This document shows positions 7,399 through 63,563 of a DNA stretch of 64,000 nucleotides, one piece after another; position 1 is the stretch's first letter, and each line of letters begins with the position of its first letter. The DNA is from Minisyncoccota bacterium. Lineage in GTDB: Bacteria > Patescibacteriota > Minisyncoccia > Phycocordibacterales > JBAZVT01. The notes under the pieces are model-generated. The model was not told where the DNA came from. It saw only the letters and a list, made by a program, of their open reading frames with translations, and made no database searches. The position numbers and the translations under genes were made by a program. The stretch covers positions 1,880 to 65,879 of the forward strand of contig JBAZVT010000003.1 of the NCBI GenBank assembly GCA_041660745.1, in the 5' to 3' direction.

Positions 7399-7483
7399 TA
7401 TAGGGTATTTACCCTTTGATGCCTTCCTCGGCTCGGAAGTGAGAAAGGGGACTTTCTCACTTCACTCACTCTACGTCAGCAAT
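7399..7483. repeat. Palindromic intergenic repeat, family 2 (AGGGTATTTACCCT + GCCTTCCTCGGCTCGGAA...CTACGTCAGCA)
   Basis: Same module recurs inverted at 30242-30325 and direct at 60876-60940. Confidence 0.6.
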
Positions 7484-7490
7484 AAGAGTC

Positions 7491-8213
7491 TTAGAAGGTC
7501 TTTTTAATGTATACGAGGTACTCTATATTGCCAGTTCCGCCAATAATAGGAGATTGGATTGATTCCCATTCTGATAGGTGGTTTGCAGTCGTCCAGGCGT
7601 GAATTTTCTCAAGTGCAGAATTGCGGGCGTTTTTGTCAGTCACAACGCCCTGTCTGTTGAGATTGTCTTGTCCCACTTCAAATTGTGGTTTTACAAGGGC
7701 TATAATTTCGGCATCGTTTTTTAATAATGTCAGTACTGCAGGTAGGACTTGTGTCAGGGAAATAAAAGAAACGTCTATGACTGCGAGATCAACCAGCTCG
7801 GGTAGTTGTACTTTCCTCACATCCATCTGTTCTAGGGTGATGACGCGCGAATCATTTCGTAGTGAAGCATCAAGTTGGTTTGTGCCGACATCAATGGCAT
7901 ATACTTTTTGTGCCCCCGCTTGCAATAGGCAGTCTGTAAAACCTCCGGTTGATGATCCGATATCTGCCACTACATATCCTGATGGTTTTACAGAAAATAC
8001 TTCTAAAGCTTTCTGTAATTTTTCACCACCACGACTCACAAAAGGAAGAGGTTTTATGATATGTATATCTAACTCCTCTTCAATTTCCTCGCTTGGTTTT
8101 ATAATTGATTTGTTATTAATGGTTACCAGGCCGCGTTTAATAAGCTCGGCTGCGGCGGTGCGAGAACGACAAAGCCCTTTTTTAAACATGAGAACATCGA
8201 CTCTTTTTTTCAT
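7491..8213 (-). CDS. tlyA: TlyA-family rRNA 2'-O-methyltransferase (S4 + FtsJ-like domains)
   Basis: N-terminal S4 RNA-binding (RVDVLMFKKGLCRSRTAAAELIKRGLVTIN). SAM motif VADIGSSTGGFTDCLL. Confidence 0.8.
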   Translation of the reverse strand: MKKRVDVLMFKKGLCRSRTAAAELIKRGLVTINNKSIIKPSEEIEEELDIHIIKPLPFVSRGGEKLQKALEVFSVKPSGYVVADIGSSTGGFTDCLLQAGAQKVYAIDVGTNQLDASLRNDSRVITLEQMDVRKVQLPELVDLAVIDVSFISLTQVLPAVLTLLKNDAEIIALVKPQFEVGQDNLNRQGVVTDKNARNSALEKIHAWTTANHLSEWESIQSPIIGGTGNIEYLVYIKKTF

Positions 8214-8295
8214 CAGTAACCAGCATACCGTAAATTTTCTGTAAAATCTAATCCTGAGCTAAAATATAACTATTTTACTACTTTCATTTTTGTAC

Positions 8296-8315
8296 TTGAA
8301 TTTGGGTGGTATAAT
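8296..8315 (+). promoter_or_regulatory. Extended -10 promoter (TGgTATAAT) immediately upstream of the ECF sigma start; leaderless or near-leaderless transcript
   Basis: tggtataat at 8307-8315, only 4-7 nt before ATG at 8320/8323. No properly spaced -35. Confidence 0.3.
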
Positions 8316-8319
8316 CCAC

Positions 8320-8886
8320 ATGATGGAAAAAACCGATGAAGAACTTGTCAAAGAGTATAATGTCACCGGGGACACAGATGTATTTGAGGTGCTTGTGAGG
8401 CGGTATGGTAAGTCTATATATAATTTTATCTATCGATATGTTGGCGCTGATTCTTACTCGAATGATTTGGCTCAAGATACGTTTGTAAAAATGTGGAAGA
8501 ATATAAAAAAATTTGATGGTAATAAACGATTTAAAACATGGATATTCCAGATTGCAAAAAATACCGCTTTAGATTGGCTAAAGTCGAAACATTCAAAAAC
8601 TTTTTCTGAGATTGAGGCTCTTATGGGTCTCGACGAGGAGTATTTGTTTGAGGTTATTGATACCGAACCTCTTCCTGATGAGTTAGTGGGAAGAAAGGAA
8701 TTAAAAAAAGAAGTTGAGCAAGCTCTTGTAAATATTAATCCAGAATATCGTGCTGTTGTTTCTTTGCATATTTTTTCAGATCTTACGTTTCAAGAGATAT
8801 CAGATATTACAGGGGTGTCAGTGCATACAGTAAAAAGTCGTTATAGGAGGGCACTCATAATGCTTAAAAAACATCTTATGCCGTAG
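8320..8886 (+). CDS. ECF-subfamily RNA polymerase sigma-70 factor
   Basis: Sigma70 region 2 (DLAQDTFVKMWKNIKKFD) and region 4 HTH (FQEISDITGVSVHTVKSRYRRALIMLK). Confidence 0.85.
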   Translation: MMEKTDEELVKEYNVTGDTDVFEVLVRRYGKSIYNFIYRYVGADSYSNDLAQDTFVKMWKNIKKFDGNKRFKTWIFQIAKNTALDWLKSKHSKTFSEIEALMGLDEEYLFEVIDTEPLPDELVGRKELKKEVEQALVNINPEYRAVVSLHIFSDLTFQEISDITGVSVHTVKSRYRRALIMLKKHLMP

Positions 8887-9329
8887 TGCACCAAAGCCTT
8901 CCTCTGTGTCGTACTATAAACATGAATGAATATGAGAAATTAATTCAATGTATACCAGATATACACCCCAGGGAAGATTTTGTGGAGGTGGTTATGTTAC
9001 GAGTTAAAAAAGAATTATACATGCGAGCATGGAGACGTTTTGTTACCGGTTCGTTTTTTGCGGTAGCTTCTTTTGTGGCTCTCGTTCCTGCGGTTGTACA
9101 GTTGTACTCCACATGGTTTCAGTCTGGTTCCGCAGAGATAATCTCCCTTGTTTTTTCAGATTTTACTATCGTGACTACCTACTGGAAAGAATTTCTGCTG
9201 TCGTTTGTAGAATCGGTGCCATTTATTCCTTTTGTGGCGGTGTTGGCTTCAGTGTGGGTATTTCTCGTTTCGGTGAGAAGTTTGTTTAAAATACCGACAA
9301 AATCTTTTGGCTTGTTATTCAATAAGTAA
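8886..9329 (+). CDS. Putative membrane-anchored anti-sigma factor (one TM helix), translationally coupled to the ECF sigma gene
   Basis: GTG at 8886 overlaps the sigma stop (TAGTG); alternative ATG at 8922 (MNEYEKL). Central TM helix FFAVASFVALVPAVV. Position-based call, no zinc-finger motif. Confidence 0.4.
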   Translation: MHQSLPLCRTINMNEYEKLIQCIPDIHPREDFVEVVMLRVKKELYMRAWRRFVTGSFFAVASFVALVPAVVQLYSTWFQSGSAEIISLVFSDFTIVTTYWKEFLLSFVESVPFIPFVAVLASVWVFLVSVRSLFKIPTKSFGLLFNK

Positions 9330-9339
9330 TTATTATCAT

Positions 9340-61688: not shown

Positions 61689-61713
61689 GAGAAATATTTG
61701 TAATTAAAGGTAC

Positions 61714-62220
61714 CTATTTAATTTCAGTAACAAGACTATCGATTTGCTTGTCAATTTCAGCCTCGTTAACAGGAAGAGCTTCTGCTGTCTCTATCTTCTT
61801 GTCTGCTGCAATTTCTGCAGACTTTTCTCTGATTTTCAGCATGTTGCTGATAAGAGTATTTTCTCTGACGGTTTTGATGATGAGGTAACGTAGAACCATT
61901 GGACTTGCACCCAACGCTTCCTTAACGTTCTTAATCATTGCTGGGTCAAGATCAAACTTAATCCAACCAAAATACGCCTTGTTATACTTGTCATGACGAG
62001 CTTCTGCAATCTTCGTCATTTCATACGCGAGAGGGATAAGCTTAGGAAAATCGTCGGAGATAAACATACCGCCATTCTTCTCAATCATGTCTTTGATTGT
62101 GGCGAATTCTCCGGCAAGCTTTTCCTCTGGAAGAGACGGTATCAAGTGAAAACCGATTTCATACACTTGAGTTCGCTCTGCTTGCCCTACTTGCGCAGTA
62201 ACTGTCTTTTTTATAGCCAT
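61714..62220 (-). CDS. rpsF: 30S ribosomal protein S6 with C-terminal extension
   Basis: MAIKK...TQVYEIGFHLIPSL...NGGMF...LAYEMTKIAEARHDKYNKAYFGWIKFD...LRYLIIKT aligns with the S6 fold. Gene order rpsF-ssb-rpsR conserved. Confidence 0.7.
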   Translation of the reverse strand: MAIKKTVTAQVGQAERTQVYEIGFHLIPSLPEEKLAGEFATIKDMIEKNGGMFISDDFPKLIPLAYEMTKIAEARHDKYNKAYFGWIKFDLDPAMIKNVKEALGASPMVLRYLIIKTVRENTLISNMLKIREKSAEIAADKKIETAEALPVNEAEIDKQIDSLVTEIK

Positions 62221-62327
62221 TGTACTGCGTTTTAAACTTAATAATGAAGAGATATCGAAATCTCCCAAACCTCCGCTTGAGCAGTGATTCAGGAGGTACA
62301 TTAACACAAAAGCGGTTAGAAGTAAAT

Positions 62328-62678
62328 CTAACCCTGGATATAAAATAGAAGGAAAGGAATCGCCAAAGGTAATATCAGGAACCAAAAAAAGACACAGTAC
62401 ATCCGTCGTTTTTCCAACTTTTTATCCGCAGTTAAATTGTATTTTCGAATATTATAGAAATAAAATTCCAAGCCAACATGTTCTGCAAAATTAACCAGTG
62501 CAATTGGTATACCAAATATCAAAAGCGCAAACGCGCCGAGACTCTCATTAAAACTAGTTGACGGAGCTGGAAAAGAGGCTCGAAATTTAAATAAAATAAA
62601 TAACAAGGCTATTCCACTAAGAAATAAACTGATTGTTATTACATTTTTTTGTAGTTTTAATTTTTTATCTATATCCAT
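62328..62678 (-). CDS. Hypothetical small membrane protein (3 TM)
   Basis: Hydrophobic helices ITISLFLSGIALLFILF, GAFALLIFGIPIALVNF, MYCVFFWFLILPLAIPFLLF. Confidence 0.45.
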   Translation of the reverse strand: MDIDKKLKLQKNVITISLFLSGIALLFILFKFRASFPAPSTSFNESLGAFALLIFGIPIALVNFAEHVGLEFYFYNIRKYNLTADKKLEKRRMYCVFFWFLILPLAIPFLLFYIQG

Positions 62679-62685
62679 GTAAAAA

Positions 62686-63498
62686 TTATATCATGTTTAT
62701 AATAAACACTCTTTTCACATTCTTTAATAACTGCACCCTGACAGTTTCTACATCCCCTCCTCTAATTTCTGCCATGGTTTTTACAACTTCGGACACAAAT
62801 GTCGGTTCGTTACGCTTGCCGCGATACGGTACAGGTGCAACGTAGGGCGAGTCTGTTTCAGCCATAATCATGCCTGATGGTGCAAATCGAATCACTTCGT
62901 CATATTGGCGAGCAAATGTAATTACACCAGTAAAGGAAAGTGTAAAACCAATCTCAATAGCATCTTTTGCTATACCCATATCCCCAGCAAAGAAATGAAA
63001 ATTTGCCCGTACCGGAGCTTTTTCCCGTGCAGTCTTTAACATTTCCAAAACATCTCTATACGCATCCATACTCCCCTTAGTGGGTCGAGCATGAATCATA
63101 AGAGGAAGATTGTGCTTCTGAGCAAAAGCAATATGCTGGGCAAAAAGTTCTTTCTGTCTGTTTTTTTCTACCTCGATGTCACCAGTGAGATTAAAATATT
63201 CTAAGCCACACTCCCCCACAGCAACCACTTTCTCTGATTCTGCAAGCTTTTCAAAAACTGCTTCGTCAAAAATCGCACCAGCATCATCTGCAGGATGAAC
63301 ACCAATTGATGCGTAAATATTTTCATTCTCTTCTGCAAGAGCGACCGCTTTTTTTGAATCTTCGACATCAGTTCCAATTGTAATAGTCCCCACCCCAACA
63401 TCTCTCATACGTGCCAAAACAGCATCCCTATCTGAATCAAATTCAGATCCGTGGAGATGTGAGTGGATGTCGAAGTATTTAATAGACTCGGGAGTCAT
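62686..63498 (-). CDS. tatD: TatD-family metal-dependent hydrolase (DNase)
   Basis: FDIHSHLH (metal-binding His pair), GECGLEY, and following conserved His/Asp positions. Confidence 0.85.
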   Translation of the reverse strand: MTPESIKYFDIHSHLHGSEFDSDRDAVLARMRDVGVGTITIGTDVEDSKKAVALAEENENIYASIGVHPADDAGAIFDEAVFEKLAESEKVVAVGECGLEYFNLTGDIEVEKNRQKELFAQHIAFAQKHNLPLMIHARPTKGSMDAYRDVLEMLKTAREKAPVRANFHFFAGDMGIAKDAIEIGFTLSFTGVITFARQYDEVIRFAPSGMIMAETDSPYVAPVPYRGKRNEPTFVSEVVKTMAEIRGGDVETVRVQLLKNVKRVFIINMI

Positions 63499-63515
63499 AA
63501 TTTTAAATTTGGAAA

Positions 63516-63563
63516 CTACAGAGGCTAAGCCTTGGCGTCGAACGCCAAGGCTTAGCCTCTGTA
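63516..63563. repeat. Family 4 palindromic repeat between metG and tatD
   Basis: ACAGAGGCTAAGCCTTggcgtcgaacgccAAGGCTTAGCCTCTGT. Confidence 0.6.

Follow-up and report, generated by a model that had tools for sequence, protein, structure and literature searches.

A 64,000-nucleotide (nt) stretch of contig JBAZVT010000003.1 (hereafter, the window), from a very small genome of Candidatus Paceibacterota within the candidate phyla radiation (CPR, or Patescibacteria), probably holds at least five families of hairpin repeats (F1 to F5) belonging to at least two enzyme-and-repeat systems, namely F1 with the Ssn nucleases and F4 plus F5 with a Y1 transposase-like protein, with no identified mobiliser for F2 and F3. 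F1 is a Ssn-related motif (SRM), a kind of element already known, and its host here is a CPR bacterium. F4 and F5 are putatively a new class of repetitive extragenic palindromes (REPs), and F2 and F3 are orphan families. Streamlining and a scarcity of mobile DNA are commonly attributed to CPR genomes, and here two independent hairpin-repeat systems (SRM and REP-like) and two orphan families are found in core operons of a single window. F1 would extend the recently described Ssn/SRM system to the CPR, and F4 and F5 point to a CPR-wide syntenic RayT-like gene with a REP class that has no GTAG foot.

Hairpin repeats in the window

A previous sequence-only reading of the window had listed four families of short palindromic repeats, and every listed copy was recovered at its position by comparing the window with itself. 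The fifth family, F5, was absent from that list and consists of CATAGGACCGCCCTATG doublets around the Y1 gene. F1 is present as 11 units in five clusters, F2 as three copies, F3 as two and F4 as three (Table 1), and all families formed hairpins when the units were folded as DNA. The composite structure attributed to some copies was also evident, as seen in the inverted F1 doublets at 54360-54428 and 61593-61686 and in F2c, which adjoins F3b at 60871-61001. Further, a 1.1-kb spacer (53491-54618) and a 0.43-kb spacer (55507-55939) hold mixed units of several families in alternating orientation, like the bacterial interspersed mosaic elements of E. coli and the neisserial intergenic mosaic elements. 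Unlike these, the clusters in the window combine unrelated SRM and REP-like classes and lie in a very small host genome.

Chance expectation was determined from dinucleotide-preserving shuffles of the window. The F1 core CTCGCAAWGACAG matched six times with at most one mismatch (0.12 expected), F2 TGCCTTCCTCGGCTC three times exactly (0.05 expected) and F4 ACAGAGGCTWAGCC as six exact arms (0.46 expected), while F3 ACCCTGTTAAAT was found as four exact arms plus two one-mismatch arms flanking the 23S rRNA gene (0.5 expected). The observed count was reached in none of the 100 shuffles for any family. At the gathering threshold, no Rfam family matched any of the repeats, and only sub-threshold matches to generic hairpins were obtained at E<=10.

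The source is a metagenome-assembled genome (MAG) and assemblers can be confused by short repeats, but collapsed repeats, a chimeric assembly or random similarity are a very improbable explanation in view of the shuffles and of a separate Logan assembly of run SRR18595301, which carries the same repeats and is 100% identical to the window over 48540-51529 and 99.98% identical over 58962-64000, repeats included. The 8 kb covered by this second assembly contain eight repeat units, among them F1, F2c, F3b, F4c and F5; the repeats are therefore not assembly artefacts. The same families are also present in unrelated data sets. Repeats of this kind may be a cause of contig breaks in CPR MAGs, and they could be used as strain markers.

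Empty sites in a relative

A relative, L013, is represented by a 133-kb contig from the European Nucleotide Archive that is collinear with the window at 43-64 kb, with 80-91% nt identity, and empty sites were determined from base-level alignments of the two. The rpsF/ssb gap, which holds an F1 doublet, measures 206 nt in the window and 55 nt in L013; likewise, the ssb/rpsR gap, with F3b and F2c, measures 227 nt in the window and 22 nt in L013. The genes metG and tatD are separated by 74 nt with F4c in the window and overlap in L013. The spacer between ftsK and the gene for a 295-amino-acid (aa) protein is 275 nt long in the window and 200 nt in L013, where the F1 units at 55771-55903 are missing, and neither the F1 units at 53815-53884 nor the F3a region upstream of rplJ is present in the relative. 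Gene calls also confirmed that repeats split rpsF, ssb and rpsR as well as two epimerase paralogs, as had been proposed. Upstream of the 295-aa gene, L013 has an F4-like palindrome of its own at a different site (AGAGGCTTAGC...GCTAAGCCTCT).

The families thus turn over between close genomes, which is the strongest evidence for their present or recent mobility. As judged from these alignments, the repeats entered their intergenic sites recently when measured against species divergence. Like classical miniature inverted-repeat transposable elements (MITEs; Correia, RUP), they are short, non-autonomous, intergenic and equipped with terminal inverted repeats. Unlike MITEs, they showed no target-site duplication at the six junctions aligned with L013, their length of 30-90 nt is below that of most MITEs, and no DDE partner was seen.

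Several other differences and similarities between the two genomes were noted. Two insertions relative to L013 belong to none of the families, namely a 46-nt double hairpin (CCACCTTCGGTGG + CCAGCTTTGCTGG) at 44516-44573, upstream of rplJ, and a 33-nt hairpin at 60524-60556, beside the conserved rpsR/efp terminator. Between tatD and rpsF, a 116-aa open reading frame (ORF; 62328-62678, minus strand) without family match was also called in the Logan assembly; this position comprises only 38 nt in L013. Approximately 700 nt at 53491-54181 (L013 16920-17545), upstream of a gene for a peptidoglycan-binding protein, are about 84% identical and hence as conserved as coding DNA. Neither a convincing ORF nor an Rfam match was found in this region, which may be a leader or a novel RNA and has received the F1 pair at 53815-53884 as an insertion. 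With repeats on its flanks in both genomes, the 295-aa gene was considered as a partner enzyme and rejected: it had no Pfam or PDB match, and only a weak NCBIfam match to a helix-turn-helix (HTH) region at its C-terminus.

F1 is an SRM-type element

According to Chenal et al. (2025; PMC11893778), the NTS of Neisseria, CGTCATTCCCGCGMAVGCGGGAATCYRG, contains dRS3 and is part of the broader SRM class. SRMs flank small GIY-YIG (cd10448) ssn genes, typically in the order motif-gene-motif, and, as single-stranded DNA, are bound by Ssn and cut just upstream of the motif; cleavage depends on the three bases 5' of the palindrome, and binding on the C immediately 3' of it. On one strand, the F1 units share the frame GTC-[palindrome with an (A/T)T start and an AT end]-C-CAG (CTGG in one unit), with GTC directly 5' and C directly 3' of the palindrome in nine of the nine full units. 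Like the NTS, F1 has GTC, a palindrome ATT...AAT, then C and YRG, in the same orientation. The CCCGC-type units are near-identical to the NTS, and the doublet at 54360-54428 is nearly the NTS itself. When folded, CCCGC units formed 8-bp stems, and TTGC units 5-bp ATTGC/GCAAT stems with additional inner pairs. A second SRM subtype is nested in or beside the units at 43116 and 55771.

The published SRM string, HGTCWYN(0-2)YYVSBRHN(0-5)WNVSBRGN(0-2)RNCYNB (PMC11893778), matched the window exactly at 53856-53883 and 54400-54427, i.e., twice against 0.13 expected, a count reached in three of 300 simulations. For the TTGC type, the pattern CTGGATTGC N8-38 CTCGCAATGACAG was found in at least 120 stretches of GTDB genomes from many phyla, including Candidatus Staskawiczbacteria. 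The groups among the matches listed comprise Alpha-, Beta- and Gammaproteobacteria, Bacteroidales, Spirochaetes, Firmicutes, Verrucomicrobia, Actinobacteria, Nitrospirae, Melainabacteria and CPR. The same pattern was also present in 10 viral contigs of widely differing GC content. In five of the 120 8-kb loci listed (L153, L160, L187, L194 and L241), a small GIY-YIG gene was located beside or between F1 units, with the order F1-gene-F1 in L160 and L187, where a rough estimate that assumes one gene copy per ~4-Mb genome gives about 0.25 loci by chance. Pfam PF01541 was confirmed in all four GIY-YIG ORFs tested.

Based on the frame, the string matches and the GIY-YIG genes beside the same motif in other phyla, we identify F1 as an SRM element by its sequence, with a cognate enzyme gene that, if present, would lie outside the window. 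In line with this, F1 is multi-copy, intergenic, often paired and clustered in mosaics, as are NTS and SRM elements, and its TTGC type flanks GIY-YIG genes in other genomes. On the proposed mechanism, F1 in single-stranded form would be bound by a small GIY-YIG Ssn nuclease and cut just upstream of the motif. If Ssn/SRM limits recombination of incoming DNA here as in Neisseria, this would bear on organisms that are thought to depend on DNA uptake.

Other comparisons with F1 were less informative. The orientation of its units was 8:3, with the NTS-sense strand on the G-rich strand of the replichore, and not significant. A generic "GTC-stem-C" hairpin was counted 24 times against 18 expected by chance and, without enrichment, was therefore dropped as a test. 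A literature search with F1 sequence strings returned primer coincidences only.

F1 copies might, alternatively, be orphans or relics, passively acquired together with other copies (e.g., by recombination with imported DNA) and now decaying with no cognate enzyme left. Many F1 units are indeed degenerate (the GTCTTT variant, the half unit at 54457, a mismatch in 54360-54386), the window and the CPR loci examined contain no ssn gene, and 19% of SRM-rich genomes are reported to be without an SsnA homolog (Chenal et al., PMC11893778). On the other hand, paired units are intact at 54400-54428, 55867-55903 and 61593-61622, and the genome sample is only ~64 kb. Moreover, the GTCTTT (AAAGAC) variant recurs at different sites in the Patescibacteria locus L360, which suggests a lineage-specific functional variant and not decay. 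We regard F1 as unlikely to be a relic.

Three observations on F1-like sequence are of a minor nature. Metagenomic F4-type hairpins at L256 576-624 and L323 921-969 carry an F1-like loop fragment (GCGAAAGACAG / GCGCAGGATAG), which suggests that SRM and REP-like classes nest in other genomes too. The ORFs at 53595-53900 (plus strand, 101 aa) and 55621-55917 (minus strand, 98 aa) overlap F1 units, have no family match and are probably spurious frames created by the repeats. F1 units can be translated into peptides such as VIASAAKQS, found at the start of an ORF in L187.

F4, F5 and the resident Y1 gene

The resident Y1 protein has the motifs NHFH and YIHLNP and scored 43.9 bits with the NCBIfam model REP_Tyr_transpos, under its cut-off of 80. 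Like the SSB protein of the window, it is 100% identical to a protein from a MAG of Candidatus Paceibacterota. The order of its neighbourhood (ftsK, HTH gene, large protein, Y1, ~200-aa gene, LTD/beta-helix protein, rplJ-rplL, MscS) is kept in three genomes with 54-55% protein identity (L359, L360 and L361/L362). Besides the source itself, no near-identical homolog was found among 5.8 billion proteins, the closest non-self homolog showing 57% identity, and no tnpB gene is adjacent to the resident gene. Near-identical copies at unrelated sites, as expected for IS200/IS605 elements, were thus not observed, and the position of Y1 is syntenic. Because of the synteny in three genomes and the distance of the closest homolog, the resident Y1 looks like a syntenic, vertically inherited, domesticated gene and not like an active insertion sequence.

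In L013 (19699-19786), a 6.5-kb segment corresponding to 44647-51202 of the window is absent, comprising Y1 and the genes for a 202-aa, a 1263-aa LTD/beta-helix and a 166-aa protein. That this segment is an inserted island was rejected by its synteny in three other, distant genomes of Patescibacteria, which therefore indicates a deletion in L013. A solo REP-like unit is left at the deletion junction. At the spot corresponding to 51413-51477, L013 has a single CCTAGGCCCGGCCTAGG unit, and at the positions of F5 in the window it keeps CCTAGGCCCGGCCTAGG and CCTAGGCCGGGCCTAGG as solo units.

The F5 doublets that flank the Y1 gene are 40-nt perfect hairpins. Palindromes were also observed around the orthologs. 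L359 has six copies of TCCAAGGGG-N-CCCCTTGGA and L360 has ACATAGGCCGGGCCTTGG... doublets, and the orthologs in both have palindromes of their own on either side. In L360, an in-frame CATAGGCCGGGCCTATG also occurs, a CATAGG/CAGAGG hybrid doublet is located 4 kb from Y1 and copies are found 4 kb to either side. In L361, with a second Y1 paralog 2 kb upstream, each Y1 copy has palindromes on one side only. These features resemble the REP/RAYT arrangement, or REPtron (Nunvar 2010; Bertels & Rainey 2011; Quentin 2018), in which RAYT denotes the REP-associated tyrosine transposase: Y1 is single-copy-like and vertically inherited, its own palindrome (F5) forms inverted pairs on either flank, and its orthologs each have species-specific palindromes.

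F4 was linked to this type of enzyme in metagenomes. The pattern AGAGGCTWAGC N5-35 GCTWAGCCTCT was found in 115 metagenome stretches against a handful expected (estimated by hand for a collection size assumed to be ~0.5-1 Tb), and the source genome was not among these 115 loci. Most of the stretches have a 34-nt perfect palindrome, AGAGGCTAAGCCTCC-NNNN-GGAGGCTTAGCCTCT, and several have CCTT...AAGG as in the window. In a clustering of ORFs, the sole recurrent neighbour of F4 was a homolog of the resident Y1, present in 12 of the 115 loci with 33-48% identity. At least seven of these 12 loci have the F4 palindrome as an in-frame part of the Y1 gene, where it encodes inserts like EAKPPIGGLAS before the HUH motif or after the Y motif, and in-frame F4 inserts were detected in four of 120 database homologs of this Y1 clade. 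Members of the clade are annotated from Moranbacteria and Parcubacteria, and some are named RayT by JGI. In-frame insertion of a REP into its cognate gene has been described for subclass 2.4 (Quentin et al. 2018), and the F4-type palindromes likewise are dispersed and sometimes lie in frame inside the Y1 gene. The F4 16-mer gave chance or coding matches only in viral contigs, and a literature search for REPs in CPR found nothing relevant.

The two families in the window are connected by a common frame. ACAKAGG-N5-CCT is shared by F4, F5 and the L360 repeats, and all of its 13 occurrences in the window belong to F4 or F5. Further, when compared by eye, the flanking arm of L360, ACATAGGCCGGGCCTTGGTGGT, and the F4c arm, ACAGAGGCTAAGCCTTGGCGT, agree at 16 of 21 positions. 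From these comparisons, we conclude that F4 and F5 are candidate REP-like elements of a CPR RayT-like clade. By analogy with REP/RAYT, their hairpins would be recognised on single-stranded DNA by the Y1 enzyme, cut and rejoined elsewhere, and the resident enzyme may itself move F4.

The resident protein also resembles the TIRYT group (Quentin subclass 2.1), with 231 aa against a median of 238, NH[YF]H and Y[IV]HLNP motifs, and a gene bracketed by inverted repeats. Unlike in TIRYT, the terminal-repeat consensus GGGG[AT][CG]A[CG] is not present, the flanks being complete hairpin doublets, and the synteny across genomes argues against current mobility of the resident Y1.

Directly downstream of Y1, a gene of ~165-205 aa without family match was noted both in the window (49577-50185, minus strand) and in all three syntenic genomes (L359 10943-11470, L360 10929-11546 and L361 10777-11274). 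This gene may be a functional partner of Y1.

F2 and F3

F2 and F3 are lineage-restricted composite hairpin elements, with conserved flanks or outer stem and variable inner hairpins. In F2, the left flank is exactly conserved and the right flank conserved; the hairpin between them has 12-13 bp, with compensatory changes at two positions, and the AGGGTATTTACCCT module is present in two of the three copies. The F2 15-mer gave chance or coding matches only in viral contigs, and a covariance model applied to 0.81 Mb, mostly of CPR loci, detected no additional copy. F1 and F2 share a stretch of 10 nt (ACGTCGGCAA), which was judged compatible with chance. The layout of F2 may follow the logic of NTS/Ssn or REP/RAYT with an unrelated sequence.

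The inner hairpins of the F3 copies do not align. A third copy was found at L123 889-934, a short distance downstream of a terminase-like gene in an IMG/VR contig that resembles phage DNA and stems from a different metagenome; this copy might help to link a CPR phage to its host. In its distal part (ACCCTGTTACAT / ATGTAACAGGGT; 37446-37457 and 40945-40956), the 23S processing stem equals the F3 outer stem, one compensated pair aside. About 0.5 one-mismatch matches to the F3 stem are expected per window, so the 23S resemblance is compatible with chance. The three-way junction of F3 could be derived from, or mimic, an rRNA processing site, e.g., a substrate of RNase III. We hold it improbable, taken together, that F2 and F3 are new classes of mobile hairpins with an undescribed enzyme, that F3 is derived from an rRNA site and that SRMs spread in CPR independently of Ssn.

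Table 1. Repeat units and associated genes in the window, in order of position.
Feature	Position	Strand	Description
F2a	7394-7486	+	AGGGTATTTACCCT module, TGCCTTCCTCGGCTC, 12-bp hairpin, CTACGTCAGCAA; between convergent truB and tlyA/ftsJ
Epimerase paralogs	29105-30094 and 30321-31244		Gene calls
F2b	30236-30328	-	Inverted orientation; between the two epimerase paralogs
F1 unit	43116-43178	+	NTS-sense GTCATTGCGAG...GGCAATCCAG; between 209-aa ORF and rplL; second SRM-like module (CTGGTACCCGAGAGCGGTATAC) nested inside the loop
F3a	44338-44402		12-bp outer stem ACCCTGTTAAAT/ATTTAACAGGGT around two hairpins; upstream of rplJ; within ~120-nt insertion relative to L013
F5 doublet	50340-50385		CATAGGACCGCCCTATG-TTTTCA-CATAGGGCGGTCCTATG; immediately downstream of Y1 gene
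Y1/HUH transposase-like gene	50387-51082	-	231 aa; Pfam Y1_Tnp 43.3 bits
F5 doublet	51102-51145		Immediately upstream of Y1 gene
Degenerate F5 pair	51413-51477		CATACGACCGCCCTATG ... CCTAGGGATGTCCTATG; 270 nt from upstream doublet
F1 tandem pair	53815-53884	-	110-nt insertion relative to L013; 53815-53852 TTGC-type with GTCTTT variant, 53856-53884 CCCGC-like
F4a hairpin	54249-54301		ACAGAGGCTTAGCC...GGCTAAGCCTCTGT; A-run and T-run flanks
Inverted F1 doublet	54360-54428		NTS-like CCCGC type, GTCATTCCCACGAAGGCGGGAATCTGG ... CTGGATTCCCGCCTTCGCGGGAATGACAG; units 54360-54386 and 54400-54428
Partial F1 unit	54457-54469		Beside inverted doublet 54360-54428
F4b hairpin	54556-54609		10 nt after stop codon of the 295-aa HTH-like gene
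F1 cluster upstream of ftsK	55771-55903	-	Not in L013; degenerate TTGC unit 55771-55797, TACCCG-type 55806-55831, full TTGC unit 55867-55903
rpsR	60624-60827	-	Gene call
F2c	60871-60937	+	Between ssb and rpsR; without AGGGTATTTACCCT module; adjoins F3b
F3b	60947-61001		F3a outer stem, different inner hairpins; between ssb and rpsR
ssb	61055-61507	-	Gene call
Inverted F1 doublet, rpsF/ssb gap	61593-61686		Units 61593-61622 and 61649-61686; within 152-nt insertion relative to L013
rpsF	61714-62385	-	Gene call
F4c	63515-63565		24-bp perfect hairpin; metG/tatD gap

One system or several

The sequence-only reading had regarded the repeats as mobile, recently active REP/MITE-like hairpins and had pointed to the resident HUH transposase for comparison. 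The empty sites in L013 bear out the first part of this view, while the evidence speaks against one HUH-driven system. Enzymes acting on single-stranded DNA are the most plausible partners of the repeats, but the resident HUH gene is visibly tied to F4 and F5 only: when the repeats were compared with this gene's own palindromes, F4 was found to share the frame of the flanking F5, and F1, F2 and F3 were unrelated. All four originally listed families could still be mobilised through single-strand transposition by the resident Y1, which has intact HUH and Y motifs, and a common enzyme would fit with families that are all hairpin-forming and missing from L013, which also lost Y1, as well as with the F4 core frame common to the palindromes flanking the Y1 gene. 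We assign this a low probability, since F5 is unrelated in sequence to F1, F2 and F3, and Y1 is syntenic, single-copy-like and not spreading. Moreover, F1 in other phyla flanks GIY-YIG and not Y1 genes, and a tblastn search with the resident Y1 protein revealed no Y1 homolog in 120 F1 loci.

The assignment of F1 to Ssn and of F4 plus F5 to Y1 is itself weakened by several observations. With regard to F1, most units are of the TTGC type with long, weakly paired loops and do not literally match the published SRM string, the reason for which the GIY-YIG association was tested directly, and GTCTTT replaces GTCATT. The host is a CPR bacterium, and no mention of CPR was found in the consulted passages of PMC11893778. 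Further, neither the window nor the CPR loci examined yielded an ssn (GIY-YIG) gene in motif, tblastn and hidden Markov model searches, and the F1-Ssn link therefore rests on other phyla. With regard to Y1, the motifs of the resident protein fit subclass 2.1, for which no association with REPs has been reported (Quentin et al. 2018), and the F4-carrying Y1 proteins, besides being only 33-48% identical to it, have YVNANN as the Y motif in place of YIHLNP. F5 was seen in the window only within ~400 nt of the Y1 gene, so that a genome-wide spread of F5 is hypothetical, and the copy number in the sampled 64 kb is low for REP/RAYT (three F4, three to four F5). The canonical GT[AG]G foot of REPs is found in neither F4 nor F5, the arms of which start with ACAGAGG and ACATAGG, and every arm forms a small palindrome of its own (ACAKAGG-N5-CCT); for subclasses 2.6 and 3, atypical REPs that lack the foot have been reported (Quentin et al. 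2018). The ACAKAGG-N5-CCT frame was defined with the sequences already in view, so that counting it in the window is no independent test. Finally, no partner enzyme is evident for F2 or F3, and hence no known mobiliser.

Having weighed these points, we favour separate systems for F1 and for F4 plus F5. Under this scheme, the five families, none of which would be able to move alone, would have colonised intergenic DNA, and the Ssn and Y1 enzymes would act on the very copies found in the window, with single-stranded DNA as the substrate.

Terminators and other cis-functions

Several repeats had also been proposed to be the only terminator-like structure between convergent genes. This was not supported, as other hairpins were found nearby: truB is served by a terminator-like hairpin of its own (7337-7355), the efp/rpsR pair by unique hairpins at 60524-60609 and rplL by 43300-43351. 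In a scan with a terminator consensus, only a weak 8-bp stem in an F1 unit (55870-55888) was detected among F1 to F4, and F5 was flagged. F4a and F4b have T-rich tails but loops of 11-13 nt, and F4c is without a T-tract. F4a and F4b may have been co-opted as terminators, and for the repeats as a whole such a role is weakly supported.

The repeats could instead be functional cis-elements that selection maintains, acting as terminators, as stabilisers or processing sites of mRNA or as small RNAs, with their similarity reflecting a shared function; it is known that REP-type elements have been recruited to such roles. This would be in line with the A/T-rich tails of F4a and F4b, the location of F4b 10 nt after a stop codon, the architecture of F2 and F3, kept despite sequence change, and the resemblance of the F3 stem to the 23S processing stem. 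It is, however, a doubtful explanation, as the same operons in L013 are without the elements, with gaps of 22-55 nt, and efficient termination inside rpsF-ssb-rpsR would break the operon. In addition, F2 has no uniform orientation with respect to transcription, F2b and F2c being opposite within minus-strand operons, the scan flagged just one weak stem among F1 to F4 with unique terminators adjacent, and no Rfam family reached the threshold.

Other features of the window

The 23S rRNA gene (37507-40906, minus strand) gave a match of 3400 nt to a model of 2925 nt, indicating an insertion or insertions of ~475 nt in the gene. It is followed by a 5S gene at 37251-37359; no 16S gene was seen upstream of the 23S gene, and no tRNA genes were seen in the window. 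At approximately 27000-28500, the GC skew flips from positive to negative and the gene orientation turns convergent; this region looks like a replication terminus or is possibly an inversion.

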